Shown piece after piece: positions 37,183-58,348 of a DNA stretch of 64,000 nucleotides; positions within the stretch are counted from its first letter, which is position 1, and each line of letters starts with the position of its first letter. Source of the stretch: Capsulimonadaceae bacterium (GTDB lineage Bacteria; Armatimonadota; Armatimonadia; Armatimonadales; Capsulimonadaceae); contig OZ244065.1 of assembly GCA_965215505.1 (NCBI GenBank), positions 992,001-1,056,000 of the forward strand, in the 5' to 3' direction. The position numbers were made by a program, and so were the translations under genes. The notes beneath the pieces are model-generated. The model was given only the letters and a program-made list of their open reading frames with translations, had not been told where the DNA came from and searched no databases.

Positions 37183-37255
37183 CGGGAGCACCAGGATTCG
37201 AACCCGGGACCTTTCACTTTGGAGGCGAACGCACTACCAGCTGTGCTATACTCCC
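37183..37255 (-). tRNA. trnW: tRNA-Trp (CCA)
   Basis: GGGAGTA-TA-GCAC.AGCTGGTA.GTGC-G-TTCGC.CTCCAAA.GTGAA-AGGTC-CCGGG.TTCGAAT.CCTGG-TGCTCCC-G cloverleaf. Confidence 0.95.
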
Positions 37256-37302
37256 ATGTCGTTTTGTGAGGATAAGGGGCGGGTAAAGCCCGCCCCGACC
37301 GC

Positions 37303-37464
37303 CTACTTCGCTTCGCGGTGCAGCCGATGGACGCGGCAGCGGGGGCAGTACTTGTTCAGTTCCAGCCGCTCCGGGTGCTGACGCTTGTTCTTGGTGGTCG
37401 CATACGTCCGCTCCTTGCATTCACTGCAAGCGAGGGTGATGATGACCCGTGCTTCATTAGCCAT
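37303..37464 (-). CDS. rpmG: 50S ribosomal protein L33 (Zn-binding C+ form); absent from the ORF track
   Basis: [53 protein letters not shown]. Confidence 0.97.
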
Positions 37465-37524
37465 GTCTGTGTCCTATGGTGTCAGGCCGGGGCGAAAGAA
37501 GTTCACCCCGGCAGAGTCTCTGTC

Positions 37525-38718
<1,194 letters not shown>

Positions 38719-38754
38719 GTTCTAACTTCCTCGTTTGTTCTATGCTTAAGTGTG

Positions 38755-38822
38755 TGGTGCCCACGAAGGGAATCGGACCCCTGGCTTTTTCCTTGCGGAG
38801 AAGCCTAACCCAGTTCCGGGGC
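38755..38822 (-). ncRNA. 68-nt tRNA-like element (pseudo-tRNA or tRNA mimic) in the tuf leader
   Basis: GCCCCG...CGTGGGC-ACCA acceptor, AGGGG.TCCGATT.CCCTT T-arm, no D-stem, GCAA-capped stem in the anticodon position. Confidence 0.7.
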
Positions 38823-38859
38823 ATTGTCTGCGCCCCACCGGTGTGGTGAGACGCCATGG

Positions 38860-38888
38860 ATTATACCCCAAGGCGCGCGCGATTGCAA
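38860..38888 (-). promoter_or_regulatory. sigma70-type promoter of tuf
   Basis: TTGCAA-17 bp-TATAAT on the minus strand. Confidence 0.8.
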
Positions 38889-38909
38889 CCCCTCCTCCGA
38901 ACACGTTCC

Positions 38910-38938
38910 TTGACACCCGAACGAAATGGGCGTATACT
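38910..38938 (+). promoter_or_regulatory. sigma70-type promoter of the first eCIS gene
   Basis: TTGACA-17 bp-TATACT, back to back with the tuf promoter. Confidence 0.8.
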
Positions 38939-38993
38939 TTGCCTGGCTGCGGTGACCTTTCTGCACCTAAACCTCCGTTCAAGGGGAACGAAA

Positions 38994-40202
38994 ATGATCC
39001 AGGACGTTGATGAGACTTTAAGCGCTCTGTTGTCCGCCGAACTGAGCAGGGTCCCCGGCTGCGGCATTACCGACCGGGGACAGATCACCTTCGACCCACC
39101 CGGCGTGGCGGAGGGAGCGGCGGCAGACTCGATGCGCCTCAACCTCTACCTACACGATGTTCGCGAGAACCGCTCCGTCCGTGAGAGCGGCCTGCGGCTC
39201 ACCCGGAAGCCCGGCGAGGACACGGTCGGCGTGCGCCGCCCCCCCGTCAACCTCGACCTCTCCTACCTCGTCACCGCCTACGCCGGGGGCGACGCGGCGG
39301 GGGAACACCGCCTGCTGTCGGAGGCGCTGGGCGTACTGCTCCGCTTCCAGGACGTGCCGGGAGAGTACCTGCGCGGCGTCTTGGAAGAGCAGGGCGTCAC
39401 GCTCGCCGTGGCCCAGCCGGACCACCTCGCGAGCGCCGACCCGCCCGCGCTCTGGCAGGCCCTGGGGGGGCGGATGCGGACCGCCCTCAGCCTGGTCGTC
39501 ACGGCGCAGTTCAACCCCTACGAGACGCGCTGGACCAAGGTGGTGCGCGAGATGGTGATCGGCGTCGGCCTCGGGACGCCGCCGCACGGCCCGCAGCGCC
39601 CCCTGGACGTTTCCTCCATCCGGGTCAGCGTGGCGGGCGTCGTGCTGGACCAGGGCGCGGAGGCGCCGCTGCCGGGCGCCCGCGTGGCCGTGGAGGGCTG
39701 TCCGGGGGAAGCGACCACGGACGCGGGCGGCTTCTTCTCCCTGCTCAACCTGCCGCCCGGCCCGCACACGCTCCGGGTCAGCCGCGCCGGCTACCGGAGC
39801 CGGGAGGCTCAGGTGGTCGCGCCCGCCCCAGGGCACCCCGAGCAGCTGGAGCCGTGCGTCATCACGCTGCACCCGCTGGGAGACGCCGAGCGCGCCCTGG
39901 AGGCGGCGGCGCGGGCGGCGGAGGCCCGCAGCCTGCCGGGCGTCGCCGACAAAGGCCGCCTGTACCACGCCTCCCTGTCCGGCCTGCTCCGCCGCGAGGA
40001 CGGCCTCCCCGCCGCCTATGTCTCGGTCGAGGCGGGCGGCAAGCGGACCACGACCGACGCCGACGGCATCTACTGCTTCCTCGACCTGCCCCCCGGCCCG
40101 CACACGATCACCGCCGACCTGCCGGGGGTTGGACTGCGCGAAATCACCCCCGCCTCCGCCGCCCCGAGGCAGGAAAAAACGGCCACAAAAAAATCTTCGT
40201 AA
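38994..40202 (+). CDS. eCIS Pvc16/Afp16 (DUF4255) tail terminator with carboxypeptidase-regulatory-like domains
   Basis: MIQDVDETL...ITFDPP...LNLYLHDVREN...LSYLVTAY...EHRLL; two C-terminal TTDA.G.F/Y...LPPGPHT domains. Confidence 0.88.
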   Translation: MIQDVDETLSALLSAELSRVPGCGITDRGQITFDPPGVAEGAAADSMRLNLYLHDVRENRSVRESGLRLTRKPGEDTVGVRRPPVNLDLSYLVTAYAGGDAAGEHRLLSEALGVLLRFQDVPGEYLRGVLEEQGVTLAVAQPDHLASADPPALWQALGGRMRTALSLVVTAQFNPYETRWTKVVREMVIGVGLGTPPHGPQRPLDVSSIRVSVAGVVLDQGAEAPLPGARVAVEGCPGEATTDAGGFFSLLNLPPGPHTLRVSRAGYRSREAQVVAPAPGHPEQLEPCVITLHPLGDAERALEAAARAAEARSLPGVADKGRLYHASLSGLLRREDGLPAAYVSVEAGGKRTTTDADGIYCFLDLPPGPHTITADLPGVGLREITPASAAPRQEKTATKKSS

Positions 40203-40217
40203 ACACGCCGCATGTCA

Positions 40218-40246
40218 TTGACAAAGCGTGGAAGTGGTGATACAAT
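40218..40246 (+). promoter_or_regulatory. sigma70-type promoter of the eCIS structural operon
   Basis: TTGACA-17 bp-TACAAT. Confidence 0.8.
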
Positions 40247-40252
40247 CGCCTC

Positions 40253-40668
40253 AGTGCCCCCGAGGAAGACGGCGGCACTCCCGCCAAACTCAGCACACTT
40301 AAGTACCAAGAACTCTCTGCACGACCTATCACGCTGTAAGACCTGTAAGACCCAGTCGCCTGCCCATTCCGCAAGGTTTCATACAGATCGGATTGGACAC
40401 GAGATTCCGCCGCATCCCGAAGGTGCGGCGCCCGAGTGATCCGAACTAGGTGCCGCAGTACGTTTGCCCCACCTCCCTTAAATGCTCGCCAGATGAACGC
40501 TCGCTAAGGTCCTAGCGATTCGCCGCCGCAAGGCTCGAGTCCCGGTGCCCTCCCGTAGGCCCTGACTCTGCCCTTCGCGCCCGGCGCGTCGCCTTCCCGC
40601 TCGTCCTGCCGTAGCCGTAGTTGTTTCACTGTCCAACGCTGAACTACCATCACAAAGGAGCGCCCCCC
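40253..40668 (+). ncRNA. candidate structured 5' leader RNA (~415 nt)
   Basis: Non-coding stretch between promoter and sheath RBS with many stem-loops, two with GCAA tetraloops. Confidence 0.5.
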
Positions 40669-42570
40669 ATGCCAGAGTATCTCGCCCCAGGATTGTTCGT
40701 CGAGGAGATCGACAGCGGAAGTAAACCCATCGAAGGGGTCGGCACCAACACGGCCGCCTTCATCGGCTACGCCAAGAGCGGGCCGTTCAACAAGCCGACC
40801 TTCATCAGCGACTGGACCTCGTTCTGCCGCTGGTTCGGCGAGGAGGAAAACGGCCTCACCGCCGCGCTCTGCGCCGAGCTGGGCATGACGGTGTCCGAGG
40901 TCCGCACCGCCAAAGAGGCCTCGCGCAAGGGCTGGACCGAGTTCGCGTCGGCCGCCGTGGACAAGGCGGCAAGGGAGAAGAAGACGGCCACGGTCAAGAG
41001 CTTCCAGCAGCTCCTGAAGGACTACAAGATTGACCGCAGCGGCCTCCCGTACATGGAGGACAGCTACTTGGCGCATGCCGTCAAGGGCTACTACAACAAC
41101 GGCGGCGGGCGGGCCTACATCGTCCGCATCGCTCACCCCAACGACATGAAGGCGCTGGCGGGTAAGCCGGAGGCGGGCACCAAGCCGGTCCGGACCGAGG
41201 CCGCCCCCGCCCAGATCACGGCCGGGCCGCTCCTGCTGACCGCCCAGAAGCCGGGCGCGGCGGGCAACGACATCAAGGTCGAGGTCGAACACGCGGGCGA
41301 CGGCAATGAGTTCAAGCTCAAGATCACTCAGGGCGACGGTGCCCCCGAGATGTTCCCGCCGAACCCCAAAGACAAGCCGCTCACCCTGGAGAGCGTGGCA
41401 GAGACGATCAACCGGCACTCCAAGCTGGTCAGGCTGGAGGTGGCGAAAGACGTCGCCACCGCCGCGCGCCCCGACATGAAGGTCTTCGTGCTGGCGGGCG
41501 GGGCCGAGGCGACCGAGACGCAGCTCGCCAAGGCGTCCGGCACGACCGCCCTCGCCCCCGCCGGCTCGCCGCTCTCCAACGGGCTTGCCAGCCTGCGCGC
41601 GGACGACTTCATCGGCGACGCCGCCCAGCGCAGCGGGCTGGGCGGCCTGGTCCCCGTGGACGGCGTCAACATGATCGCCATCCCGGACCTGATGGCGGGC
41701 GTCTGGAAGCGCGAGAAGATCCTCGTGGGCGACAAGGAGGAGTTCACCGAGGAGACGCTGGTCCTGGACGACAAGCGCCGCGAGGCGATCCTCGCCGACC
41801 AGGCCGCCCTGGTCCAGCACTGCGAGCTGGCGGGCTACCGCATGGCGATCCTCGACCCGCTGCCCGGCCTTTCGCCGCAGGAGGTCAACGACGTCACGAT
41901 GGGGGTCAACTGGGGCTGTGAACACGGCCAGGCGGCCATCTACTACCCGTGGATCAAGATTGCCGACCCCGTGAACAAGGGCCAGCAGATCTTCGTGCCG
42001 CCGTCTGGCCACATGGCGGGCGTCTGGGCGCGCGTCGGCGGCGAGCGGGGCGTCCACAAGGCCCCCGCTAATGAGGCCGTCATGGGCGCGGTGGGCATGG
42101 AGGTGCAGGTCACCAAGGGCGAGCAGGAGATCCTGAACCCCAACGGCATCAACTGCATCCGCTCCTTCCCCGGCACCGGCATCCGCGTCTGGGGCGCGCG
42201 CACCCTGGCGACGCGCGGCAACCCGTCCTGGAAGTACGTCAACGTCCGGCGGCTCTTCAACTACCTCGAAGAGTCCATGGAGCAGAACCTCCAGTGGGTC
42301 GTCTTCGAGCCGAACGACATGGACCTCTGGGGCCGGGTCCGCCGCAACATCTCCGCCTTCCTCTACACCGAGTGGAAGGAGGGCAAGCTGTTCGGCGGTG
42401 CGCCGCAGGAGGCGTTCTACGTCAAGTGCGACGCCGAGACGAACCCGCAGGAGATGATCGACCTGGGCCGGCTGTACTGCGAGATCGGCGTGAACCCGGT
42501 CAAGCCCGCCGAGTTCGTCATCGTCCGCATCGGGCAGTGGTCCGGCGGCGGCAGCATGGCCGAGGCATAG
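40669..42570 (+). CDS. eCIS contractile tail sheath protein
   Basis: AAGGAG RBS; YLAPGLFVEE, AIYYPW, PPSGH.AG, RGVHKAPAN, VWGART, YVNVRR, VFEPND and PVKPAEF motifs. Confidence 0.96.
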   Translation: MPEYLAPGLFVEEIDSGSKPIEGVGTNTAAFIGYAKSGPFNKPTFISDWTSFCRWFGEEENGLTAALCAELGMTVSEVRTAKEASRKGWTEFASAAVDKAAREKKTATVKSFQQLLKDYKIDRSGLPYMEDSYLAHAVKGYYNNGGGRAYIVRIAHPNDMKALAGKPEAGTKPVRTEAAPAQITAGPLLLTAQKPGAAGNDIKVEVEHAGDGNEFKLKITQGDGAPEMFPPNPKDKPLTLESVAETINRHSKLVRLEVAKDVATAARPDMKVFVLAGGAEATETQLAKASGTTALAPAGSPLSNGLASLRADDFIGDAAQRSGLGGLVPVDGVNMIAIPDLMAGVWKREKILVGDKEEFTEETLVLDDKRREAILADQAALVQHCELAGYRMAILDPLPGLSPQEVNDVTMGVNWGCEHGQAAIYYPWIKIADPVNKGQQIFVPPSGHMAGVWARVGGERGVHKAPANEAVMGAVGMEVQVTKGEQEILNPNGINCIRSFPGTGIRVWGARTLATRGNPSWKYVNVRRLFNYLEESMEQNLQWVVFEPNDMDLWGRVRRNISAFLYTEWKEGKLFGGAPQEAFYVKCDAETNPQEMIDLGRLYCEIGVNPVKPAEFVIVRIGQWSGGGSMAEA

Positions 42571-42643
42571 CCTCCGCCCGTCTCGCCCGGCCGATCGCGG
42601 ACGCCGGGCGGGACTCTCACCCTGACACGAAAGGACAGATACC

Positions 42644-43078
42644 ATGGCAGAAGTAACCGGCGCAGTCAGTTTCTACATCGAGGTGGACGGAATCACCGAG
42701 GGCTTCTTCAAAGAGGTTTCCGGCGGCGACATTGATGTGGAAGTCATCGAGCATCGGGGGTCGGGCAAGACCGGCGAGCAGGTCATGTACAAGATCCCCG
42801 GCAACGCCAAGTACGGCAACATCACCATGCGGCGCGGCGTCACGGACGACACCAAGCTGCACGACTGGTTCCAGAAGATCCTGGACAAGGGCGTCGAGGG
42901 CAACCGCAAGAACGGCTCCCTGACCGGCTACGACAAGGCACAGAAGGAGGTCTACAAGATCAACTTCACCAACGCCTGGCCCTGCAAGGCCAAGGGCTTC
43001 GTGGTAGACGCCTCCAAGAACGAGTTCACCCTGGAAGAGTTCGAGATGTGCGTCGAGCGCATCACCCGCGCCAAGTAG
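42644..43078 (+). CDS. eCIS tail tube protein (T4 gp19-like)
   Basis: FKEVSG, KIPGNAKYGNITMRRGVT, RKNGS and NAWPCK motifs. Confidence 0.94.
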   Translation: MAEVTGAVSFYIEVDGITEGFFKEVSGGDIDVEVIEHRGSGKTGEQVMYKIPGNAKYGNITMRRGVTDDTKLHDWFQKILDKGVEGNRKNGSLTGYDKAQKEVYKINFTNAWPCKAKGFVVDASKNEFTLEEFEMCVERITRAK

Positions 43079-43127
43079 GCGAGGAGGCCGAGTAACGGAA
43101 AACAGTAACCACGGAAAACAGTAACCA

Positions 43128-43478
43128 ATGAACAAATCCGCGAAGACCGGCGGACTGCAAACCGAGTTCGACTTCACCCTGCCGCGCGGCTATGTGGACG
43201 ACGCGGGCACGCTGCATAAGCAGGGCAAGATGCGCCTGGCGACCGCCATGGACGAGATTGCCCCGCTGCGCGACCCGCGCGTGCGCGCCAACCAGGCCTA
43301 CCTGGTCATCATCCTGCTCACCCGCGTCATCACCGCGCTGGGCACGGTCGAGGCCATCGACACGAGCGTCGTCGAGAACTTCTTCTCGGCGGACCTGGGC
43401 TACCTCCAGGACTTCTACCGCAAGATCAACGAACTCACCCCCGAGGACGGCTCGGAGGATGCCGACTCGGGGGAATAG
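43128..43478 (+). CDS. eCIS tail assembly chaperone-like protein
   Basis: TEFDFTLPRGYVDD.G.LH..G.MRLATA.DEI...DL.YLQDFY; located right after the tube gene. Confidence 0.85.
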   Translation: MNKSAKTGGLQTEFDFTLPRGYVDDAGTLHKQGKMRLATAMDEIAPLRDPRVRANQAYLVIILLTRVITALGTVEAIDTSVVENFFSADLGYLQDFYRKINELTPEDGSEDADSGE

Positions 43479-43636
43479 TCCGCTACCCCTCGGACCGTCT
43501 GTACGAGGAGGTAGCCTACATCGCCTACCACTTCCACTGGCCGCTCGACCGGATCCTGGAACTGGAACACGCCGAGCGGCACAAGTGGATGGAGGAGATC
43601 AGCAAGATCAACAAGCGGCTCTCCGGGGGCGACTGA
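43472..43636 (+). CDS. DUF6760-like ORF lacking a start codon (probable -1 frameshift extension of the chaperone); absent from the ORF track
   Basis: GIVRYPSDRLYEEVAYIAYHFHWPLDRILELEHAERHKWMEEISKINKRLSGGD in the -1 frame after G GGG GAA TAG. Confidence 0.85.
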   Translation, partial: GIVRYPSDRLYEEVAYIAYHFHWPLDRILELEHAERHKWMEEISKINKRLSGGD

Positions 43637-43722
43637 CGAAACGCGGCAGCAGCCGCGCTCCCGTCGTCCCCTCTTTTCCTTTTATGGAATAATGTGGTTT
43701 GGTAATCTGATAGAGGAAGGAG

Positions 43723-46700
43723 GTGAAAGACAAAGTGAAGACACAGACTCTGATTGAACAAGCGGGCATTGGAGCGGCCGGGAGAAAAGCCAGTGCGTTC
43801 GCCCACGCGCTCGGGGCGCGTTATCACGCCTACACGCAGCACCTTGACTCGGAAACTTACCAAGACCCCGCCACCCATCAATCAAGAACCTATCAGGATG
43901 GCGATCTTACCGGGCCGTATTATCCTAAGTCTGGATACCACGGGCCGCAGTCCGTGTCGCCGTGGCAGACCCTCACGGGTGCCGGAACGGTCGTGTACGT
44001 CAATGGAATGAACAACAACCTGGCCGCGCATGTGGAAGCCGCACAGGCCACAGCAGACAAAGAGAAACACCCAGTCGTCGGGGTCTTCAATGCTACAGGC
44101 ATCACTAAAGCCACGAAGCTTGCGAGCGCCGTCCTCGGCAAGACTTGGAGTGGGCGCCTCGGGACCGGCTTGGGCCTTGCTGCGGACGCGGCCCAATGCC
44201 TTTCGGATGACGAAGGTGATTTTCTTAACAACCCGGCGATCACAACCCTGGTCGAAGTACTGAAACGCGGCTCAAACCGAAACATCGTCGCACATTCCCA
44301 GGGCACACTCATTGTCACCGCCGCGTTGAGGCGGCTAAAGGACAAGGACAGCAAAAAGCGTCGAGACTTCTCCGGCTACAACATTAAGTTCTTTGGCAGT
44401 CCCGCTTCCACGCGCATCGTCGGCCCGAACTACGTCGACGACACATCCAACAACGACGACGCCGTAGCCTCCTTCGCGATGGATGGCTTGTCGCTGCTCA
44501 GGAACACGCGCCGCTTGCCGAAACTGCTGCTGGCTCAGGTCGGCATTCACACCTCCGCCTTCGGTGATAATGAACTCAGCCGCTACAACAATCGCATCCT
44601 GACGCCGGACCGCGGGAAGTTTATCGGGCCGCACAACTACGAAAATTATGAGAACGCTTCCCCCACTTTCGACGAGTTGAGCAACGGCAGGGCGCACCTC
44701 CCGTCACACACGCCTAAGCTGGAGAAGACGACTTGGCCGGCGACGCTACGCGCCCTGACCGGCTATAACGCTTGGGGGCCTGCCGCCGCCCGCAAGGCGA
44801 CTAGTGTATCACGCTCCGTTCTCTCTGGAACACTTAATGCACGGAGGTGGATCGGTTCTCGCGCACACGCTTTGAAAGACTGGGCAGGTTCGAAGGCTCA
44901 TGCGGCCTTCAGTTGGTCACGAGATACAGCCCGCGCTGCTGGCAACCGGCTTGACGGTGAAGCCCACGACTCCGGCCAGTGGATGCTTCGGAACCGGGAA
45001 TGGATCGGCGATACCCTGCACGAAGCCTCCACAGTATTTGGTGTTCTCGCCGCAGTGTTGGGTGTTACCGCCCTGGCCATTCCTCCTACGGCACCGTTTC
45101 TGGTGCCGGCGGCTCTGACGTTCGGGGCGGCGGCCGCCGCCGCGCGGGCCTGGCACAGCACCAGCCTGGCGGTCGGGACGATTGACGGCAGCGTCCGCCC
45201 GGAGGCGGCGCTGAATGAGGCGAAGTGGGCGGCCGTGGACACGGCCCTGTCGGTCGCCACCGTCAGCGTCTCCAACGCCCGCTTCATCGCGAGGGCGACG
45301 ACCGTTCCTGGGATGAAGGCCGTCGCGCCGATGCTGAACAATCCGGCGAATACGGCCGTGACGCTCAACCACATCTTGCAGCAGACCAACAAGCTGTTCG
45401 GGCTGAAACTCGGCCTGATCCTGCGGAACCCGATGTTGGCTGCACGGCTCGGCTGGGTCAGCAAGGCCCTCGCCACGGCGAAGTTCGTGAAAAAATTGGT
45501 GGAGATGGGCACGTCCCGCCTCCTCCGCATCGCGCACGGTGTAGCGCACGGCATCGCGGGGGGGGCTAAGTCCGCCTGGAACTTTGCCAAGGATACGGGA
45601 ACTGGACTGCGGCATTGGGGCGAACAGAGAGCACATCAGGCCGGTGAGTTTTTCCATAACCTCAAGGAAAAGTACTACCCCTCGCCTAAGCACGACAATG
45701 CCTCGGGCAGCGCCGCGCAGGACATCGGGCAGTGCGCTACCGACAAGTTTGGCATTCTGGGAATGGGCATGCGCAACGCGGCCACCAACACACTGGCCGG
45801 GGTCATCGGACGGCATGGCAGCCCGACGGCCAAAAACAGCGAGCTGGACCTTCACGCCCATTCGCAGAGCGGCATGAGCGTCTCCGAGGCGTTCCATCCG
45901 CGGGACGGTATGAGCGTCTCCGAGGCGTTCCATCCGCAGGGCGGTATGAGCGTCTCCGAGGCGTTCCATCCGCAGGGCGGTATGAGCGTCTCCGAGGCGT
46001 TCCATCCGCGGGGCGGTATGAGCGTCTCCGAGGCGTTCCATCCGCGGGGCGGTATGAGCGTCTCCGAGGCGTTCCATCCGCGGGGCGGTATGAGCGTCTC
46101 CGAGGCGTTCCATCCGCGGGGCGGTATGAGCGTCTCCGAGGCGTTCCATCCGCGGGGCGGTATGAGCGTCTCCGAGGCGTTCCGGCAGTTGAAAGGCAAG
46201 AGGAAGGACGTGCGCGGGCCGGATGTCCCCACGTTCGGGAATGCCGCCTGGTCCCTGCCCACCCATCTGCTCGGCTACCATAACCATGCGTTCGGTTCCG
46301 GTGTCATTCCCACGCGCGGCGGCTCTACCGCGGGCATCGGGGCGCTCCTGCGGACACCATTTAATCAGTCAAATCCTTTGAACCCGTTCCTGGGCCTGCG
46401 AGGCATGGTTTCCACCCCAGATGCCCATTCGCGGGGCGGCATGAGCGTCTCCGAGGCGTTCCATCCGCAGGGCGGTATGAGCGTCTCCGAGGCGTTCCGG
46501 CAGTTGAAAGGCAAGAGGAAGGACGTGCGCGCGCTTCCTTTCCTGACCGGCCGGAAGCCGAACACTGTCTGGAGCGCACTGGATCGCGGGGTTCGCGGCG
46601 GCAGTAGCGGCTTGGAGCGTGGCCTGCGTGGAAGCGGCACGACTCTGGACACCGGCCTGCGCGGGAGGGGCCAGGACTTGGACACGGGCTGGCGCAACAG

Positions 46701-49700
46701 CGCCGCCGTCTATGGTTCCACCGCGCGCTTGGGCGGCGGGATGCTGGATCACCGCCTCAGCCGCAGCGGCTCCCGGGCCGTCAAGGCAGGGCGTTCCGGC
46801 GCGAACGCTGTGGATGACTCTTTCGATGCCGCCAAAGCCCTCCAACGCAGCGGGTATGGCGACCATCCTGACGTCAACCCCGCCGCCCTGCGCGCGGACC
46901 TCCGCAAGCAGAGCAGCGGCTTCCTCCCGGACGGCAATATCCGCGCCAGGCTCGGCGGACACCTCGGCTTCGACCCCGGCGGCGCGCGCCTGCACACCGG
47001 CCCCGCCGCCGCCGCCGCGTCCCGCCGCCTGAACGCCGAAGCCTTCACCATCGGCAACGATGTCTTCTTCGGCGAAGGCCGCTTCGACCCGCACACGCCC
47101 AAGGGCCTGGGCCTGATCGCCCACGAACTCACCCACGTCGGCCAGCAGACCGGCACGACCGGCAGCAAGGCCCGCTTCTTCAGCGAGGCGGGCGGCGACC
47201 AGATGGAGCGCGAGGCCCAGCAAACCGCAGAACACGTCCTCGCGAACGCCGGAAGCCGCAGCGGCCTATTCGTGGAAGACTACGTCCGCGAGTACGAGGG
47301 CGACGGCGGGCTGACCCAGGCCGACCAGTTGCGGCTGGACCGCATCTCGGTCATGGCGCTGGCCGAGGCGCAGCGGATGCTGGCGAGTCAGGGGATGCAC
47401 GGGAGCGTCAACGCGGACGCGCTGGACGTGGAGGTCGAGATTGACCTCGGCGAGATGAGCGACGGGGAAGCGGCACGGGCGTGGGCGGGAGTGATTGTGG
47501 CGGGTGTCAGTCAGAGCGCCCGGCCGGGTGGCACGTTCACGGAGCCATCGCGCCCACATCTCGCCCGAAAAGAGCTGGACTGGGACTGGAGCAGCACGGT
47601 CGCGCCGCAGGACTGGAAGTACTCCGACCGCATCATCTGGAATGACACGCCCGGTGGAGTCGCCGGAAGGCCGGACAACACGTTCATCAAGGCTGCGGTA
47701 TACAACACAAAAGCACTTGATCCCAGTCAGTATGCCACGATTGGACAGCGCAGCAACTATTACGAGGTCATGAGCAACATCATCCAGCAAAACCCGGCAT
47801 GCAAAGACGTGAAGTTCTTCGATGCGGCGGCCCAGGTCACCAATGCCCGGAGCGTGGGCGCCGTCGAGCATTTCTGGGGGAGCGGTTTCGGCAGCGGGCC
47901 GCTCGCGCTCCGCGGCCCGCAGGCGAAATCTATTTACACCGATGTCAATGCTGAACTATTCACGGCAAACATGGGTGTCATCAACAGCTTGCTATACCGA
48001 ACAAAAGTGCCGACAAGCCCACTCGTTCCCGGCTCGACCACCCCCATCTCTGCCACGGCATTTGATCTTGAGATGGTTGAAAAAGAGCAGGGAATTGTTG
48101 AGACTCACCTCGCAAAATACAAGGCCACATTCTCACCAAAGACGATCGCGGAAATCAACCGTGATCTGAACTATAAAGGGGTTTATCGTACCATCGGCGA
48201 GATCACGTTCTGGCCGCTTGGTGACGCGAAGGCAAGCTACTGGGCAAAAGCGGCTCTGGGTGTGGGCGACCTGGACTTTTTCAACCAGACGCACAGGATC
48301 GCCATCGGGAAGGCGAAGGTCTTCGGCCTGCACGGCCTGACCGAGAAAGACTACGCCGCTCACATTCATAGCGCCACCACGCCGTCGTCCGCAGGAGCGG
48401 CAAGTTTATCCACCGCCGGGACACCCGTTGTTCCGCCACAGCGCAGGGCGCTGTCAGGAGCGCCGGCCGATCCAGGCCGATCGGAACGCGCGGCGCAGGC
48501 TGTGGAAGCGCAGGCCACGGCGAGCGCGTTCGCCGACATGCCCTCACGTTCCCTGATGGCAACCCAGTTCGGCTTCCAGCCCTTGCGCTCCCAGGCTTAC
48601 GGCACACTCGAACGGGAGGCCGAACATGTGTCTGCCGCCGTGAGGAGCAACGAACCTCATGCCGCGCCCGCGCTTTCGGCCGCCCCATTGGGCATCCAGA
48701 ATTACGACACTTATGAGCATGTAAAGTTTGGCGGGGAGCCTGGGAACCAGCGGATGGTCACGATCAATGGCGTCGTGGTTTCCTATGGGGAGCTGATCTC
48801 CATGGGTGATTTCTTTGAGAACCCGGACCAGATTTACGACACCCCCCCGGCTCAACTCAAAGCGCTGGTGGAAATGATCCGGCGCCAGGTGGCCGATCCG
48901 AAATCCGTGACCGACAGTGACTGGGCTAAAGTCTCGCCGCGCTACCTCGACCTCGCGACCAAAAACGATGCCCATTTCGCGCCCTCTAATCCTTCGCTGG
49001 TGGCACCTGGCGGCAGCCCCGGCCCGGACCACCGCCAAACCTGGGAACGCCTGCACAAACAGGCGTTGGACCTGGCTCAGGATGGCCAGCCGGACCGGGC
49101 GCTGGCGACCAACGCATTCGGCGATCACTTCCTCACGGATGCGTTCGCGACAGGCCACCTGATCAACAAGGGGGATGTCATGGCAAGGTTCCGGTCCCGA
49201 TTCGCCGACTCGAACACGCGCGCGAGTTTCTTTAAGGCTGTGGCCCGGAACGTCTGGGCGGACTCCTCTGTCGCGGCCTACGTCTCACAGTATGAGACCG
49301 GCGAACCTTACATGCTGGGCTGGCACCCGAACATCGACAGTGCGAGCCGATTCTCCGAGTTCCTCAGTGAAGTTTACAAAGCCCAGCCGGACGTGATCGA
49401 CAACGCAGTGGTCAAAATTATCCATGACCGCCTGAATGACACGGTGGGCGGGCTGGAAGTGCATAACGCGGCGGGACAACTTTGGCATCTTTCCGGTGAC
49501 GACACTCTCAACAGCGAGAGTCTGGATATGGGGCGGCGCGCTGTGGATCAGTCGCAGAAAAACATCTTAGGCATCAATTCCAGTCGTGTTCCCTCGCCTG
49601 GAAGTAAAAATGGCAAGGGATACACGGGAGACCTACAGCCGTTGTACAAAAAGGTATGGAACTACTGTCCAATCCCGACCGATGCCAGCGTCAAGGCGAT

Positions 49701-49833
49701 CCATGATGTGATCGAGACAATGACAAACCCGAGTGCCCAGGAGACCATTGTGGCGGCCGGCGCTATGATTCGAGAAAAAATTCACACGATCATTGAAGAG
49801 GCTGTCCGGCTTAAGAAGCTACGCAAAGCCTAA
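43723..49833 (+). CDS. 2036-aa multidomain eCIS cargo/effector (lipase, DUF4157, phospholipase C-like)
   Basis: AGGAGG RBS before GTG; AHSQG hydrolase; A.AFTIGNDVFF...LIAHELTHVGQQ (DUF4157); YGELISMGDFF...NAFGDHFLTDAFATGH. Confidence 0.85.
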   Translation: MKDKVKTQTLIEQAGIGAAGRKASAFAHALGARYHAYTQHLDSETYQDPATHQSRTYQDGDLTGPYYPKSGYHGPQSVSPWQTLTGAGTVVYVNGMNNNLAAHVEAAQATADKEKHPVVGVFNATGITKATKLASAVLGKTWSGRLGTGLGLAADAAQCLSDDEGDFLNNPAITTLVEVLKRGSNRNIVAHSQGTLIVTAALRRLKDKDSKKRRDFSGYNIKFFGSPASTRIVGPNYVDDTSNNDDAVASFAMDGLSLLRNTRRLPKLLLAQVGIHTSAFGDNELSRYNNRILTPDRGKFIGPHNYENYENASPTFDELSNGRAHLPSHTPKLEKTTWPATLRALTGYNAWGPAAARKATSVSRSVLSGTLNARRWIGSRAHALKDWAGSKAHAAFSWSRDTARAAGNRLDGEAHDSGQWMLRNREWIGDTLHEASTVFGVLAAVLGVTALAIPPTAPFLVPAALTFGAAAAAARAWHSTSLAVGTIDGSVRPEAALNEAKWAAVDTALSVATVSVSNARFIARATTVPGMKAVAPMLNNPANTAVTLNHILQQTNKLFGLKLGLILRNPMLAARLGWVSKALATAKFVKKLVEMGTSRLLRIAHGVAHGIAGGAKSAWNFAKDTGTGLRHWGEQRAHQAGEFFHNLKEKYYPSPKHDNASGSAAQDIGQCATDKFGILGMGMRNAATNTLAGVIGRHGSPTAKNSELDLHAHSQSGMSVSEAFHPRDGMSVSEAFHPQGGMSVSEAFHPQGGMSVSEAFHPRGGMSVSEAFHPRGGMSVSEAFHPRGGMSVSEAFHPRGGMSVSEAFHPRGGMSVSEAFRQLKGKRKDVRGPDVPTFGNAAWSLPTHLLGYHNHAFGSGVIPTRGGSTAGIGALLRTPFNQSNPLNPFLGLRGMVSTPDAHSRGGMSVSEAFHPQGGMSVSEAFRQLKGKRKDVRALPFLTGRKPNTVWSALDRGVRGGSSGLERGLRGSGTTLDTGLRGRGQDLDTGWRNSAAVYGSTARLGGGMLDHRLSRSGSRAVKAGRSGANAVDDSFDAAKALQRSGYGDHPDVNPAALRADLRKQSSGFLPDGNIRARLGGHLGFDPGGARLHTGPAAAAASRRLNAEAFTIGNDVFFGEGRFDPHTPKGLGLIAHELTHVGQQTGTTGSKARFFSEAGGDQMEREAQQTAEHVLANAGSRSGLFVEDYVREYEGDGGLTQADQLRLDRISVMALAEAQRMLASQGMHGSVNADALDVEVEIDLGEMSDGEAARAWAGVIVAGVSQSARPGGTFTEPSRPHLARKELDWDWSSTVAPQDWKYSDRIIWNDTPGGVAGRPDNTFIKAAVYNTKALDPSQYATIGQRSNYYEVMSNIIQQNPACKDVKFFDAAAQVTNARSVGAVEHFWGSGFGSGPLALRGPQAKSIYTDVNAELFTANMGVINSLLYRTKVPTSPLVPGSTTPISATAFDLEMVEKEQGIVETHLAKYKATFSPKTIAEINRDLNYKGVYRTIGEITFWPLGDAKASYWAKAALGVGDLDFFNQTHRIAIGKAKVFGLHGLTEKDYAAHIHSATTPSSAGAASLSTAGTPVVPPQRRALSGAPADPGRSERAAQAVEAQATASAFADMPSRSLMATQFGFQPLRSQAYGTLEREAEHVSAAVRSNEPHAAPALSAAPLGIQNYDTYEHVKFGGEPGNQRMVTINGVVVSYGELISMGDFFENPDQIYDTPPAQLKALVEMIRRQVADPKSVTDSDWAKVSPRYLDLATKNDAHFAPSNPSLVAPGGSPGPDHRQTWERLHKQALDLAQDGQPDRALATNAFGDHFLTDAFATGHLINKGDVMARFRSRFADSNTRASFFKAVARNVWADSSVAAYVSQYETGEPYMLGWHPNIDSASRFSEFLSEVYKAQPDVIDNAVVKIIHDRLNDTVGGLEVHNAAGQLWHLSGDDTLNSESLDMGRRAVDQSQKNILGINSSRVPSPGSKNGKGYTGDLQPLYKKVWNYCPIPTDASVKAIHDVIETMTNPSAQETIVAAGAMIREKIHTIIEEAVRLKKLRKA
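45868..46183 (+). repeat. 36-bp in-frame tandem repeat, 9 units (last partial)
   Basis: GGCGGTATGAGCGTCTCCGAGGCGTTCCATCCGCRG = GGMSVSEAFHP(R/Q). Confidence 0.97.
46423..46531 (+). repeat. second block of the 36-bp repeat (2 units) with the same flanks
   Basis: AHSRGGMSVSEAFHPQGGMSVSEAFRQLKGKRKDVR duplicates the first block's ends. Confidence 0.93.
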
Positions 49834-49936
49834 CCTTATACTCAGCCCGCTTGACAGACGCATGGCGCTGCCCGCCGGCCGACACGATCCCTCGTTAAGC
49901 GACAGATGCGTATCAGAAAAATGAAGTGAGGGAACC

Positions 49937-50254
49937 ATGCCGGTCAATATTCGCCGCCTGCGCTGCCGGGTGATGGTCAAGACGGGCGGGCGCGACGCGC
50001 CCGTGGCGCACCACTCCGAGGGGCCGAAGCGGCCTTCGCTGCACTTCGCATTGCCGGAGCCGGAGCCGCGCGCCGAGGCGGTCCCGCCGGAGCCGGCCAA
50101 TCCGGTGAGGGAGGAGCCGCAGGCGGTCACGCCGGGGCCGGAGCAGGAGGTCAGGAAGGCCGACCCGCGCGCGGTGGCCGACCGGGTTTATGAGCTGATG
50201 CGGCAGGAGATCGCCCTGAGCCGCCAGCGCGGCGGGAGCGGGCGGGGCGGGTAG
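49937..50254 (+). CDS. small eCIS-associated hypothetical protein
   Basis: GAGGG RBS; C-terminal DPRAVADRVYELMRQEIALSRQRG helix. Confidence 0.7.
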   Translation: MPVNIRRLRCRVMVKTGGRDAPVAHHSEGPKRPSLHFALPEPEPRAEAVPPEPANPVREEPQAVTPGPEQEVRKADPRAVADRVYELMRQEIALSRQRGGSGRGG

Positions 50255-50288
50255 GCATGGGGCCGAGGGCGGCGATAAAGGAGCAGTC

Positions 50289-50843
50289 ATGGCAGGCATT
50301 CTGGACAGCGTGAAGGGCGGACGGGGGAAGCTCGGCCACATCGGGGGACAGCTCGGCGCACATGCGCGGCTACCTCGCGGCCTAGTGGCGGCACCGACCG
50401 GGCCGAGCGATCCGCAGCGGCGGGACCCCTACGTCAACCTCCGCTTCGCCATCGAGATAGACCACGTCACCGTCGCCCTCTTCACGGAATGCTCCGCGCT
50501 GACCATCGAGACGGAGACCTTCGAGTACCAGGAAGGCGGCGTGAACACCTACACGCACAAGCTGCCGACGCGCACCAAATACGGCAACATCACCCTGAAG
50601 CGCGGCATGGACGACTCACAGGAGCTGTACCAGTGGTATCTGCTCAACGTGAGTGGCCAGACCAAGCGGCGGAACCTCTCGATCATTCTGTATGACCTAT
50701 ACGGCGGCCCGGCCCGACGCTGGGACCTCATGGGGGCCTACCCCTGCAAGTGGACGGGGCCGGACCTGCGCGTCGATACGGGCGCGGTCGCCATCGAAAC
50801 TGTGGAGTTCGCCCACTCCGGACTGATTCCGAGCGGCAACTAG
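50289..50843 (+). CDS. second eCIS tail tube protein (gp19-like)
   Basis: DPY...F.IEI...FTECS.L...YQEGG.N...KLP...YGNITLKRG...AYPCKWTGP...AIET.E. Confidence 0.93.
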   Translation: MAGILDSVKGGRGKLGHIGGQLGAHARLPRGLVAAPTGPSDPQRRDPYVNLRFAIEIDHVTVALFTECSALTIETETFEYQEGGVNTYTHKLPTRTKYGNITLKRGMDDSQELYQWYLLNVSGQTKRRNLSIILYDLYGGPARRWDLMGAYPCKWTGPDLRVDTGAVAIETVEFAHSGLIPSGN

Positions 50844-50865
50844 AAGGCTCCAGAACACACCCGCG

Positions 50866-53800
50866 ATGACCTCAGAACAACAACAGGCGTTGGACGCGCT
50901 CCCCGCGCCGGCGTCATTGGACCGCATCACCCGCTTCCTGAGCGACCTCGGGCAGCAGGGGAACGCGCCCCTGGGCGCGTCGGGCCGGTCGGCGCAGGCC
51001 TTCGCCGCCTCCCTCGCGGGCGGGGCGCACAGCTTCAGCGCGCGGCAGGCGTCCGGCTGGGTGGCGATCCTCATGGACCGCTACCAGATCAAGATGGGCG
51101 AGATCCAGGAGTTCGCCCTCTGGTTCGTCCGGCGGCAGGAGATACTTTCCCAGACGTCGGACCTGGTCGAGCGCGCGCCCGAGCCGGTGCTTGCACGTCC
51201 CCAGGCACCCGATCCAGTCCTTGCGATGCCCCCGGCGGCGGAACGGGCGTCCAGGGCGGTGCAGGCGGAGGGGATGAGTGCGACACTCGCCGCCGACGGC
51301 CCCGCTCAGGCCGGTTATACTAAGGCCAGTCCCGGCGCACCGCCGCCGCGGACGGCTCTGCGCCGTCAGGCGGTCACGGCATCGCCGGACGCCCTGCCGC
51401 CCTCAGAAGGGGGGCGGGGGCGAGAAGCCCAGGATGCCGAGCCTGACGCGACGGAAGAGTGGCCCCGACGCCGGCAGGCCGATTCCAAGGGGCAAACCAC
51501 CGCCGGCTCCGCGCGCCGTCGCCGCATCGAGCGCGGGCCGGTCCGGGCAGGCGATGACGCGCCGCCGGGCGATGCCACCGGAGAAGGAACGCCACAGACG
51601 GGGATGCCGGAGGAAGAAGCCCCACCGGCCAAGCGGCCCTTCCGGCTGATGCCGCACATGATCACCCGTCCGGCGTTCGTCACCAATGTCGGGCTTGCCG
51701 GGATGCTGGCGGGCCTCACCTTGTCGCCTGGGGCGGCGATGGCCCAGGACGCGCCAGACATGGCGCTCGCCCTCCCGCAGATGCTTGGCTCGGGGCCGAT
51801 GGGCGGGCCGCTGCCGATGTACCCCCCTTTCGCGGGGGCCGGGCCGATGGGCGGGCCGCTGCCGATGTCCCCCGCTCAGGGCGGGATTTCCCCGCTGGGT
51901 GTGCCCGCCTTCACGCCGACGGTGACGCCGCTGGCATCCGCCGCCGTCGCGCCGCCGTCAACGGTCTGGCTGGGGATGCCCGCCCCGGCTCCGCCTCCGC
52001 CTGATGCCGATGCTCCAGGCTCGGTGGCGTTCCCCGCGACTCGGCCGGCGGCATCGCCGGGCATCGCCTCCCCCACCCCGCCCGCGCCGGACATGACCCT
52101 CCTGCCGGGAGTGTCACCGGAAACGCTGGGCATTCAGGCGATCCCCCCGCCCCAGGCCGTCGGGACACAGCCGCCTGTTTCCGCATTTGTGCCACAAACG
52201 GGTGTGCCGAGGCTTCCATCCGATGGTCCCGCTTCGTCCCAACCGCCGGTCGCTCCGCCCGCGCCGACTAACGCCTCGCCTGATGCGGCATTGCCGCCGC
52301 CTACACCACAATCGCCCGCCTTGATGGGTCTTGCCGCCGGGAGCGCCGCTCTGGCCGCCGCCGAACAACTCGGCGCGCGCCAGCCGCAGGCCGCACCGAG
52401 CGATCAGGCCACACCAGGCGATGCGACGACCACCCCAACGGGTGTCACCCTGCCTACTCCCGCCCTAATCGTGCCGACCATCATATCACCTGAGATGGCG
52501 CTGCCGTCGCCTCCGCCGCAGCCAGAGCCGCCGACGTCCGCAGCGATGAGCCTGGCCGCCGGGGGTGACGCACTGGCCGCCGCCGAACGATATGTCCAGG
52601 CCGCACCGCCCGTGCCGTCCGCGTCGCCGCCTGATGCATCCCGGCCCGCCTCCGCCGCTCCTGCTTTGGCGGGGCTGGTGGCCGGGAGCGCCGCGCTGGC
52701 CGTCGCGGACCGGTTCCGCAGTTCCCATTCGCCGCCCGCGCTAGGCGGCACCCGGCCACTCTCGGCGGGGGCCAGCCTGCCGCCACCCGGCGCGGGGCCT
52801 TCCCCCATGACCGTCTTTCTGGGAAGCGCGCCCCGTTCGGAAGCGCCCGACGCCGCCATGACGTCCGCGCCACCTTCGCCCTTCGCCGCGACGCCCGAGA
52901 TGGGGCAGCTCACCCTGCTGGCTCCGCCCTTGCAGATCGCCTCCGCCCAGGCCGAGCGGGGCGGCATCGCGGCCTCCGTGGACTGGCAGACCCTGGCCGG
53001 CGGCGCGGGGCCGCTGGATGAGGGGGGCCTGGCACGTCTCAAGCAGGTCCTGCCCGCACAGGCCAGCGTCCTCTATCCGGCCCTGAAGCCGGGGAGTCTG
53101 GGACCGGGGGCGGTGAACCTGCCGCTCTCGGCCCCTCTGGTCCAGTCCCTTCTCCAGAAGAGCTATGGCGGCGTCGGCATGGGGATGGCGACGCGGGCCG
53201 CCGACATGGCGGCCTCGCTGGGAGGGGGGAAGCCAGCCGCCGCGCCGCTCCCCGCACAGATCGTCCCCGGTCGGCGTCCGTCCGGGACGGCCGCGGGCGT
53301 CCTCGGGCATCCCGACGAGGTGCAGGGCGGGGCGGGCGCTCTGGGGCAGGCGGGCAAGGGGCAGGCCACGCGCGGCGGCGTCCTGGACTTCCTCGGCCTC
53401 CCGGTGCGCCTCGCGCCGAGCCTCGGCGGGCGGTCCGATCTGGCCCGCGAAACCACCCTCCGCAATGCGGGCCAGGGTCCGGTCGCATCGCAGCAGACCC
53501 TGCGCCCGGAGCAGTTCGCGCCCCTGCGGAACCGCCTGTTCCCCGCCTTCAGCAGCATGGCCGTCGAGCCTGACAAGGGCGCCTGGCGCAGAGCCGCCCC
53601 CGCCTTCGGCCTGCGCGACGGCAGCCCGACCACGCTGCTCTCGCCGGACGCCCGCGTCCCGGTCCAGACCCCGACCATGCCGCAGCCGCCGTCCCGCAGC
53701 AGGCCGCCGGCGTCTTCACCGTCCGCTACGCTGTCGGGTTTACCGCCCGCCGCGCTCTCGGGCGGGCAGCACGCCGCGTCTTTACGCGCACCGTCTTTGC

Positions 53801-55137: not shown

Positions 55138-55198
55138 CGGGGGCGCGGCACAGAGGGACGGGCGAGGGGTCGTAAGAAGGACCGAGGGAGGGAAGACC

Positions 55199-55969
55199 AT
55201 GCGGATACTGACTGGCGGGACGGGAAAGAGCGGGGCGGGGCTTGCCGGGACGAGGCGAGGCGAGGCGGGACACGGCGGGGCGGCTCACGCCCTGGGAGCG
55301 CCGACCAAGGCGACGGTCATCAATCTCGACAAGGACCCGCGAAGCCCCGCCCTGGAGTGCCTGTTCAACCCCACGGAATACTCGTTCACGATGGGCAACA
55401 ACTGGACGCCCAAGCGGGCCAACGGGCGCGAGATGTCGTTCCTGGAATACACCGGCGGCGACAACAGCACCCTCACCCTGGACCTGTTCTTCGACACGGT
55501 CGAGCCGCGCGCCGTCCACGGGCAAGTCCACACGGATGTGACCGAGTACGTCAAGACACTGCGGGAGTTCATGACGCCCTCCGTCGGAAGCCCCGGCACG
55601 AAGAACAAGCGCCCACCCTACCTGCTCTTCCAGTGGGGGAAGGGGTACAGCTTCAAATCCGTCCTGCGGAGCATGTCCGTCCGCTATACCCTGTTCAACC
55701 AGGGCGGCGATCCGGTCCGCTGCACGGCGAACGTCACCCTGGTCAGCCTTGAAACCGACTCGCCGGAGAACCAGCAGGGGACCAACCCGACCTCCTTCGC
55801 CGAGGCCGGGCACAAGCGGCGCGAGGTGATGCCGCAGGACACCCTGGCCCTGATCTCCTTCCAGGAGTACGGCACCCCGAATCACTGGCGGCGCATCGCC
55901 GAGGCCAACGGCATGGAAGACCCCAGGGACCTGCGGCCCGGACAGGTCCTCGCCATCCCGCCGGCTTAG
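55199..55969 (+). CDS. eCIS tube-initiator protein with LysM domain (Afp7/Pvc7-like)
   Basis: CLFNPTEYS, LDLFFDT, PPYLLFQWG, YTLF...G.PVR and DTL..I...YG....WR.IAEAN...PGQVL.IP motifs. Confidence 0.92.
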   Translation: MRILTGGTGKSGAGLAGTRRGEAGHGGAAHALGAPTKATVINLDKDPRSPALECLFNPTEYSFTMGNNWTPKRANGREMSFLEYTGGDNSTLTLDLFFDTVEPRAVHGQVHTDVTEYVKTLREFMTPSVGSPGTKNKRPPYLLFQWGKGYSFKSVLRSMSVRYTLFNQGGDPVRCTANVTLVSLETDSPENQQGTNPTSFAEAGHKRREVMPQDTLALISFQEYGTPNHWRRIAEANGMEDPRDLRPGQVLAIPPA

Positions 55970-56002
55970 GCTGGAAAGTCGGAATGGAAAGGAAACCCCG
56001 CC

Positions 56003-57937: not shown

Positions 57938-57955
57938 ACAGGAAGGATCAAAAAG

Positions 57956-58348
57956 ATGCCGCAGCATGTCTGTAACGGCGCGGTGATGATGTGTTCGTTC
58001 GGCGTCGCCCCCTCCACGCTGATCGTCCTGCCGATCAACCGGGTGCTGACCAGCAATCAGCCCGCCGCGAACATCATGGACCACCTACCGATGGTCAACG
58101 TCATGCCGTTCGGGATGTGCATGACCCCGAGCAACCCGCAGGTGGCGGCGGCCACGGCGGCGGCCCTGGGCGTGCTGACGCCGATGCCCTGCGTCCCGAT
58201 GACGGAGGCCGCGCCCTGGGTGCCCGGCGCGGTGACTGTCCTGGAAGGGGGCCAGCCCGCCCTGGACAACACCTCCCAGCTCCTGTGCATGTGGGGCGGG
58301 GTCATCACGATCTCCGTGCCGGGCCAGTTCACCGAGGAGATTCCCTGA
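57956..58348 (+). CDS. PAAR-like spike tip protein (DUF4280)
   Basis: CSFG, PAANIMD, PFGMC, PCVP and C.WGG.I motifs. Confidence 0.92.
   Translation: MPQHVCNGAVMMCSFGVAPSTLIVLPINRVLTSNQPAANIMDHLPMVNVMPFGMCMTPSNPQVAAATAAALGVLTPMPCVPMTEAAPWVPGAVTVLEGGQPALDNTSQLLCMWGGVITISVPGQFTEEIP

Follow-up and report, generated by a model that had tools for sequence, protein, structure and literature searches.

A modest cis-acting leader that probably tunes the output of bulk eCIS parts in a Capsulimonadaceae bacterium

The long untranslated leader ahead of the eCIS sheath gene of a Capsulimonadaceae bacterium is a real, uncatalogued and modest cis-acting element that lies outside every family we tested, and it probably tunes the amount of bulk eCIS parts made. 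We studied it in a 64,000-nucleotide stretch of the genome (the window). The reading that we favor, with a probability of about 0.45, is that of a cis-acting leader which stabilizes the message for high-copy eCIS parts and, via a bound factor, tunes it. This reading is favored because the promoter and core of the leader are conserved, one stem of the core (in domain H2) covaries, a repeated GTAAGWC box is confined to the sense strand, a hairpin stands at the predicted +1 position, the RNases concerned are present, and the slpA leader offers a precedent. It is the reading that needs the fewest undemonstrated parts, and we infer each of its functional steps.

The available portions of earlier work describe control of eCIS operons mainly via RfaH/AnfA1 and nearby GerE or BTAD regulators (PMC6748792, PMC8213781). 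The locus described here is without NusG-paralogue parts. Its leader nonetheless has a defined core with a covarying stem and a box found across the family, and a hairpin sets the four high-copy genes apart. In a little-studied phylum, these are small and precise targets for tests of whether particle stoichiometry is controlled after initiation. The literature that we searched, which covered few subscription papers, held no account of eCIS leader RNA or antitermination, of contractile injection in Armatimonadota, or of Streptomyces CIS start sites.

Results

The eCIS locus and the promoter of the leader

The leader lies between a pvc16-family gene, which has its own near-consensus promoter, and the sheath gene (Table 1). 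The genome holds one sheath gene and one pvc16 gene, and searches of it with blastn and nhmmer found no second copy of the leader and no mobile repeat. The closest relatives of the sheath are mostly from Capsulimonas, Capsulimonadaceae, and other Armatimonadota. Position suggests that the 116-amino-acid gene encodes the tail assembly chaperone. After the DUF6760 gene, the same strand continues with a 2036-amino-acid eCIS-core protein, a second tube gene, a spike, a baseplate, and further genes, and by rough gene calls the same-strand run extends from 40669 to at least window-equivalent position 68122. On the minus strand at 37183-38718, tuf, a small ribosomal-protein-like gene, and a tRNA gene stand back to back with the eCIS locus. 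A short direct repeat of ~14 nt occupies 43079-43127, between the tube gene and the 116-amino-acid gene. A Pvc15-type AAA ATPase was not found anywhere in the genome with the protein of the G020 locus as the query, the best matches reaching 28 to 34% in the AAA domain only.

Table 1. Features of the leader and its surroundings (window coordinates)
Feature	Position	Strand	Remarks
pvc16 promoter	38910..38938	+	sigma70-like, 11/12
pvc16-family gene	38994..40202	+	Pvc16_N and carboxypeptidase-regulatory-like domains; adjoins leader upstream
Leader promoter	40218..40246	+	sigma70-like, 11/12 consensus bases; -35 at 40218, -10 at 40241, extended -10 TG; position and spacing kept in G018 and G022
+1 hairpin	40253..40279	+	predicted to start within 3 nt of +1 in all three homologues
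Degenerate 9-10-nt repeat array	40317..40352	+	holds two GTAAGWC boxes, 40336-40342 and 40345-40351
Conserved core, ~140 nt	40334..40474	+	identity 74% to G018, 83% to G022
Possible helix H1	40334..40386	+	40334-38 with 40382-86, 40340-43 with 40375-78; sequence nearly invariant, predicted
Domain H2	40388..40444	+	outer stem, A-rich internal loop, inner stem 40408-40430
Hairpin H3	40448..40474	+	closing stem invariant, loop sequence largely conserved
Long hairpin H4	40522..40590	+	counterpart predicted in G022; not alignable in G018
Pre-RBS block, ~25-30 nt	40638..40668	+	identity 91% to G018, 94% to G022; degenerate repeat copy and Shine-Dalgarno 40654-40660
eCIS sheath gene	40669..42570	+	ATG 40669; Pfam Phage_sheath_1
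Tube gene	42644..43078	+	Phage_T4_gp19
116-aa conserved gene	43128..43478	+	no Pfam match
DUF6760 gene	43475..43636	+	
Stable hairpin with pyrimidine/U-rich tail	43625..43690	+	z -4.3; closes four-gene block

Three promoter-like sites were found in 3.5 kb around the leader, against 0.1 in shuffled sequence, and the promoter of the leader predicts a start at about 40253. The resulting leader of 416 nt ranks 7th in length among the leaders behind 246 near-consensus promoters of the genome; leaders of at least 400 nt follow 9 of the 246, some of these probably being gene-calling misses. Four RNA-labelled sequencing runs, two of them probably DNA, contain contigs of relatives that cover parts of the stretch from the sheath gene to the DUF6760 gene, and at 90% likeness none of the four covers the bin 40110-40410; as contigs, they are uninformative on transcription, its start, and its level.

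Distribution and conservation of the leader

Long leaders homologous to that of the window (G000) occur in two further genomes, G018 and G022, all three belonging to one genus (Capsulimonadaceae, Armatimonadota). Among 39 genomes of the family, 10 have a sheath match, and only G018 and G022 share the long leader with this genome; of 38 regions upstream of sheath genes, 3 matched a profile of the three leaders. Ahead of the sheath gene, the other close loci that we read carry either little sequence or sequence unrelated to the leader, and an eCIS can therefore do without the long leader. A search of 71 genomes of the order with model R1 returned 3 strong and 7 weak matches. The two best weak matches were rejected as homologues, both being antisense inside long ORFs, and the other five were seen as alignments only. 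No new homologue emerged from 151 genomes of the phylum, which returned only one of the same weak matches; among 401 phylum genomes searched with DNA, 8 short matches came up at E of 3e-4 to 7e-3, two further sets of 50 and 22 sequence sources gave nothing new above 11.6 bits, and there were no leader matches in viral contigs (three scans) or plasmids. The G022 locus (L090, G022:C213, 2961-5158) is an eCIS remnant with pvc16, the full leader, and a sheath gene that lacks most of its middle; an mnmG-family gene follows the remnant sheath gene.

The promoter, its spacing, and the +1 bases are kept in all three homologues. Promoter identity is 66% to G018 and 77% to G022 (shuffled partners, 44 and 45), and that of the 5' segment is 65% and 74% (shuffled partners, 59 and 62). 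The core is well above its shuffled partners (52% for G018 and 51% for G022), as is the pre-RBS block (46 and 57); the middle segment, at 54% and 66%, stays close to them (51 and 56). Downstream of 40480 there is no conservation with G018 except in the last ~30 nt. Fourfold-degenerate sites set a second standard: their identity to G018 is 41% in pvc16 (162 sites), 50% in the sheath gene (279 sites), and 58% in the tube gene (55 sites), and their identity to G022 is 69% in pvc16 (196 sites). As the core and the pre-RBS block are above both the fourfold sites and the shuffles, both are under constraint. No reading frame is conserved across the homologues: the frames of 61 and 75 codons in this window have no counterpart in G018 and meet a stop after 28 codons in G022. 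The cis-regulatory leader RNA proposed in the preliminary description is partly supported, as a conserved noncoding element, with the promoter and the ~140-nt core kept in two relatives, one covarying stem, and no conserved frame.

Judged from these alignments, the constraint on the leader is real and not exceptional. The leader ranks 17th of 59 orthologous upstream regions of at least 250 nt, with a score of 57 against a median of 22, at which nothing is alignable; this background was drawn from 1.22 of the 5.3 Mb of G018. That 16 of the 59 comparable regions are more conserved, that the middle segment is at shuffle level against G018, and that the leader as a whole folds at chance are what would be expected of largely ordinary intergenic DNA that three close loci inherited in common. 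We consider this explanation, together with that of a processed small or particle-associated RNA, very improbable, since core identity is far above that of fourfold sites, the median comparable region has nothing alignable, and H2 covaries, and since no 3' boundary or second copy points to a free RNA.

In an Rfam scan of 17 regions from the top of this background, tRNAs appeared in two and a ZMP/ZTP riboswitch in one, and some other conserved background regions resemble missed coding sequence. A 240-nt block at G000:C1:4313621-4313860 (L178) is conserved with G018 and has no Rfam match; the gene downstream of it resembles an S-layer-homology protein from its translation. Strongly conserved upstream blocks without an Rfam match also lie at G000:C1:936638-937066, 1657836-1658071, and 4364286-4364449 (L174, L179, and L181), and these may be missed genes or uncatalogued RNAs.

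Structure of the core

The core model was drawn from this window alone, mostly from the stems of the preliminary description with H1 added, and the homologues were aligned to it. In that alignment, pairing holds in 96% of cells. Two-sided changes occur in 5 of the 36 pairs, and all 5 belong to the inner stem of H2; shuffles did as well in 2 of 500 cases, and slid controls gave 0 to 2 such pairs. Because the alignment is biased towards the structure and covers three sequences only, the covariation is support and not proof. The changes in the inner stem are compensatory and wobble changes: between G018 and the window, 8 of 20 positions differ and 10 of 10 pairs are kept. The simulated chance of keeping at least 9 pairs is 0.004 to 0.04 starting from this window and 0.007 to 0.17 starting from G018, depending on transition bias.

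In each homologue H2 folds alone into an outer stem, an A-rich internal loop, and an inner stem, with z of -2.3 (window), -4.9 (G018), and -2.0 (G022) on fitted windows; in G022 the inner stem is interrupted by a 2x2 mismatch or insert. The G-U pairs of H2 in G018 favor the sense strand (-24.4 versus -15.0 kcal/mol antisense). This strand preference is seen in G018 only, the antisense strand of H2 folding slightly better in this window and in G022. H1 and H3 are nearly invariant and therefore uninformative on RNA structure versus sequence recognition; indeed, constraint at the DNA level explains every helix other than the H2 inner stem equally well. Among models built from this window alone, those with structure outscored sequence-only ones for G018 (61.8 versus 43.5 bits) and G022 (94.3 versus 77.8), and as the two kinds of model differ in weighting (self-scores of 188.8 versus 151.4), we set this gap aside as evidence.

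Folding of the leader as a whole

The motifs listed in the preliminary description are all in place behind the 11/12 sigma70-type promoter. Its picture of a multi-hairpin leader beyond chance is not confirmed for the whole leader: the 416-nt sequence has a minimum free energy of -125 kcal/mol, no better than that of shuffled sequence (z -0.14; 47 of 100 shuffles fold as well), and the homologous leaders have z of -0.05 and +1.82. Perfect local stems of at least 5 bp number 15 (13.6 in shuffles; 82 of 200 shuffles as high), those of at least 6 bp number 6 (3.1; 17 of 200), and there is one of at least 7 bp (0.7; 105 of 200). Several of the listed hairpins are unsupported. In the full leader, the pair probability is 0.0 for both GCAA hairpins, 0.03 for TCGCTA/TAGCGA, and ~0.12 for the outer TCGGAT/ATCCGA stem (0.33 with the pair span limited to 80 nt); it is ~0.57 for GTAGTT/AACTAC, ~0.75 for the inner stem at 40408-40430, ~0.8 for AGGTG/CACCT, and ~1.0 for GAGTC/GACTC. 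Local folding of 40388-40474, with limits chosen around the hairpins, is better than that of shuffled sequence (z -2.9).

A stem-loop at the 5' end behind a strong promoter, which is a trait of stabilizing leaders, is predicted in all three homologues from predicted starts. The +1 hairpin has energies of -13, -6.9, and -7.1 kcal/mol in the three homologues, being weaker in G018 and G022, and a pair probability of 0.05 in the full leader and 0.58 at a span of 80 nt. For the first 30 nt, folding at least as good is found in 3 of the 81 long leaders of the genome.

Known RNA families and a possible translational switch

Rfam 15 identified one tRNA as its only match in the whole window and none at E of at most 10 in 40200-40700; on the homologous loci it gave two chance-level matches, both outside the leader. 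The suggestion of a riboswitch finds no support, as an Rfam match is lacking and the leader occurs in 3 genomes of one genus, unlike known aptamer families. The c-di-GMP-II class has a closing P1 and a P2 loop that is pseudoknotted to the 3' junction. By eye, a P2-like pairing is possible in this window and lost in G018, and the nested H2 fold holds in all three homologues. Genome searches with RF01786 (c-di-GMP-II) and RF03169 (its GAG variant), in which 150 of 347 and of 6477 candidates, respectively, were scored, did not include the leader among their matches at E of at most 10, which fell at 1 and 2 other places in the genome; the c-di-GMP-II resemblance is therefore unsupported.

A translational switch driven by a riboswitch, a protein, or temperature was considered as well, in which the H2 3' arm (40427-40439) would have two alternative partners, its own 5' arm (on) and the RBS region at 40650-40664 (off). 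RNAalifold pairs the arm with the RBS region in all three homologues; as a duplex partner of the RBS window the arm ranks first here (-20.2 kcal/mol) and in G018 (-12.9, with a margin of 0.8), and a gap of only 1.6 kcal/mol separates the forced off state here from the more stable forced on state. However, the arm ranks only fourth as a partner in G022, the off state is less favorable by 10.9 kcal/mol in G018 and by 3.8 in G022, and its occupancy is ~3% here, 0% in G018, and 0.1% in G022. Together with the failure of the aptamer models to match and a distribution far narrower than that of typical aptamers, this makes the predicted switch quite improbable. In the global ensembles of all three homologues, the Shine-Dalgarno sequence is mostly paired, with differing partners, long-range predictions being unreliable at such length.

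The GTAAGWC box

The repeat array includes a tandem exact 9-mer at 40334 and 40343; among 2000 shuffles, 11 produced an exact 9-mer in tandem. Direct repeats recur with periods of 9-10 and 17-18 nt, and degenerate 10-mer copies number 4, 3, and 5 in the three leaders, one always standing just before the RBS. With this pattern, which was derived from these same sequences, the leader is the only site in the genome with at least three same-strand copies within 400 nt. A de novo motif search, with the three homologues included, recovered the repeat first at width 10 (log-likelihood 39 versus 28 to 30 in two shuffles). The two GTAAGWC boxes are the only copies on either strand in 35 kb of the locus, and in two relatives with 20 kb of sequence the single plus-strand copy sits upstream of the sheath gene.

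The box extends beyond the long leader. Of 8 other close loci, 5 have it before the sheath gene in sense orientation, against 0.19 in shuffles, and none has it in antisense orientation; once the choice among 63 motif variants is allowed for, five box-positive loci of eight were reached in 1 of 500 shuffles, and with 8358 variants in 9 of 500. The eight comprise six family genomes and two metagenome contigs placed with these by similarity, and they exclude L085, a box-bearing near-duplicate of L005 (97%); since these loci are kin, the counts overstate their independence. Those that bear the box lack the long leader, and the box is kept also in intergenic regions of 96 to 130 nt where H2 and H3 are missing. 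By comparison of these sequences, the box predates the long leader and is more widely distributed. It was absent from 10 more distant sheath regions (9 from other families and the distant second sheath locus of G011) and likewise from 13 additional loci of the phylum, among them several repeats of loci already counted. An identity with the rRNA boxA was rejected, as the 450 nt preceding the one clear 16S start lack the motif (3 motif matches examined), and the geometry of an alternative-sigma promoter fits some loci only.

The direct repeats, with their two periods and 3 to 5 copies, would suit GTAAGWC operators at the DNA level for a locus-specific regulator, placed downstream of the promoter, or a nested alternative-sigma promoter, with H2 as a generic stabilizing hairpin near a secondary 5' end. 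The invariance of H1 and H3, the persistence of the box where H2 and H3 are lacking, and the 46 sigma70-family matches in the genome are consistent with that. We nonetheless regard it as distinctly unlikely. Across the genome, regions upstream of genes show no excess of the wider repeat pattern (17 sense and 14 antisense, with 19.5 expected), a second box at fixed distance is by eye not kept in most box-bearing loci, no regulator gene lies in the scanned parts of neighboring loci, and the covarying stem and the pre-RBS block are left unexplained.

Elongation control and the hairpin after the DUF6760 gene

A strong hairpin occurs at the place of the post-DUF6760 hairpin in G018, G034, and several, not all, of the other Armatimonadota loci among the 23 that we read; counterparts lie at ~8975-9040 in L089 and after the DUF6760 gene in L092 (reverse). 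The U-rich tail of the hairpin is displaced. Its position suggests that the sheath, tube, chaperone, and DUF6760 genes form a block of ~3.4 kb inside a longer gene run, and the hairpin may set the stoichiometry of sheath and tube versus baseplate. Of the operon of more than 23 kb that the preliminary description proposed, the same-strand gene run stands, and the hairpin probably marks an internal boundary after the fourth gene.

Such an arrangement raises the possibility of elongation control, in which the C-rich leader would act as a Rho-loading attenuator, or would promote read-through of the post-DUF6760 hairpin into the remaining ~24 kb by a non-NusG or RNA-only device of the put or EAR kind. 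A repeated sense-only box beside hairpins is the layout of elongation-factor loading sites and was counted in favor of this explanation, as were the long same-strand run and the conserved terminator-like hairpin. The genome encodes Rho, and all three leaders have more C than G (154/101, 103/81, and 142/91), the skew ranking 11th of 81 long leaders in the genome; Rho and a C-rich, G-poor untranslated stretch are necessary and not sufficient for a Rho-attenuated leader. Other eCIS carry elongation-control sites between the start site and the first gene, according to the accessible text of PMC6748792. Antitermination by a loaded protein, as first suggested for this leader, is contradicted by a single NusG (one PF02357 match) in each of six genomes (G000, G017, G018, G020, G022, and G026; completeness 91 to 96%), by the absence from all three leaders of the ops sequence as given in the available part of PMC6748792, and by the lack of an intrinsic terminator in the leader. 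The NusG gene lies far from the eCIS locus. No boxA-like pattern matched in the leaders, and no plus-strand intrinsic terminator was found in 38500-42000. A pattern scan of 42000-61999 found 4 weak plus-strand terminator sites and 7 terminator-like sites in total, against 11.0 in shuffles, and the post-DUF6760 hairpin is present also in loci without this leader. We therefore consider elongation control rather unlikely.

Discussion

The stabilizing, factor-tuned leader that we favor would work as follows. Transcription would start at about 40253 from the near-consensus promoter. Most transcripts would span the sheath, tube, chaperone, and DUF6760 genes and end at, or be trimmed to, the hairpin at ~43625-43690, which would give more sheath and tube than baseplate. 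The +1 hairpin, with H2 and H3, would shield the message from 5'-end-dependent decay by RNase J and RNase E/G, both of which the genome encodes. The GTAAGWC box, an older family-wide site amplified here, would be read on the RNA or the nontemplate strand by a factor that tunes output, and the A/C-rich pre-RBS block would support translation. Several points count against this model. The homologues are three only, from one genus, with the G022 locus broken, and their alignment was fitted to structure. The Shine-Dalgarno sequence is mostly paired in predicted global folds, contrary to a simply open RBS, and the +1 hairpin is predicted to be weak in the homologues, at about -7 kcal/mol. Whole-leader folding is at chance, the strand preference of H2 is confined to G018, and conservation is unexceptional.

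Stem-loops at the 5' terminus, of the ompA type, are one parallel for such a stabilizing leader. The closest precedent is the 5' UTR stem-loop of the Lactobacillus slpA S-layer gene, which in the available text of PMC10221546 stabilizes the transcript and exposes the RBS. Like slpA, the present locus joins a strong promoter and a long untranslated stem-loop leader to an abundant structural protein; unlike slpA as that text presents it, this leader has a repeated family-wide box and a conserved core 190 to 330 nt from the start codon, and its predicted folds pair the Shine-Dalgarno sequence instead of exposing it; kinship in sequence between the two leaders is not expected.

Other likenesses are with systems that act on elongation, each as far as the accessible parts of the sources describe it. 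RfaH/ops and AnfA1 control the Photorhabdus PVC and Serratia Afp operons (PMC6748792), and a cryptic class II PVC operator has been described (PMC8213781). The present leader resembles these in having a conserved cis element between the start site and the first structural gene (PMC6748792, PMC8213781) and differs in having neither ops nor a NusG paralogue and, in their place, a structured core of ~140 nt and a different repeated box. With the LoaP-dependent dfn and mln leaders of Bacillus velezensis it shares length, a small conserved hairpin, and a long operon (PMC12691694), whereas here there is no LoaP-like paralogue and no leader terminator. A UNCG-like tetraloop, recalling the LoaP UNCG hairpin in the part of its description available, is possible in H3 of two of the three homologues, without the C-G closing pair, and not in G018. 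The adjacent promoter-proximal hairpins H2 and H3, with no dedicated protein needed, recall put of HK022 and EAR of B. subtilis in the available account (PMC8632103); unlike those, the leader has no Rfam match and few downstream intrinsic terminators, and the likeness comes from predicted structure. Finally, the leader is long and C-rich, has stem-loops, and belongs to a Rho-containing genome, as does the Rho-regulated Salmonella corA leader in the accessible text (PMC5314796), where alternative folds gate a rut site and a termination point; the present leader is likened to it by composition alone.

A bolder form of factor binding would make the leader a dedicated RNA control element for eCIS assembly and have the GTAAGWC boxes recruit a locus-specific factor, with H2/H3 committing polymerase past the DUF6760 hairpin without a NusG paralogue, or with the 3' arm flipping onto the sheath RBS. 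We think this rather unlikely. If true, control by the box and H2/H3 would determine how much sheath and tube is made relative to baseplate and cargo, and it would be an RNA-based route to eCIS regulation of which the literature searched holds no report. Control by CsrA was rejected, as GGA sites are by eye positionally unconserved; the genome has four CsrA-family matches over the cutoff (G000:C1 at 1569869, 616508, 6150864, and 3522904).

Long or conserved noncoding stretches precede sheath genes elsewhere in the loci that we read. L003 (G034) has a 323-nt leader behind a near-consensus promoter before its sheath gene, with a sequence unrelated to the core and one GTAAGWC box, and L014, the second sheath locus of G011, has a 231-nt leader behind a near-consensus promoter, also unrelated in sequence to the core. 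In Chthonomonadales (L045, L047, L048, and L061), a different conserved noncoding box lies ~75 to 115 nt before the sheath ATG; it has an inverted-repeat core and is unrelated to model R1.
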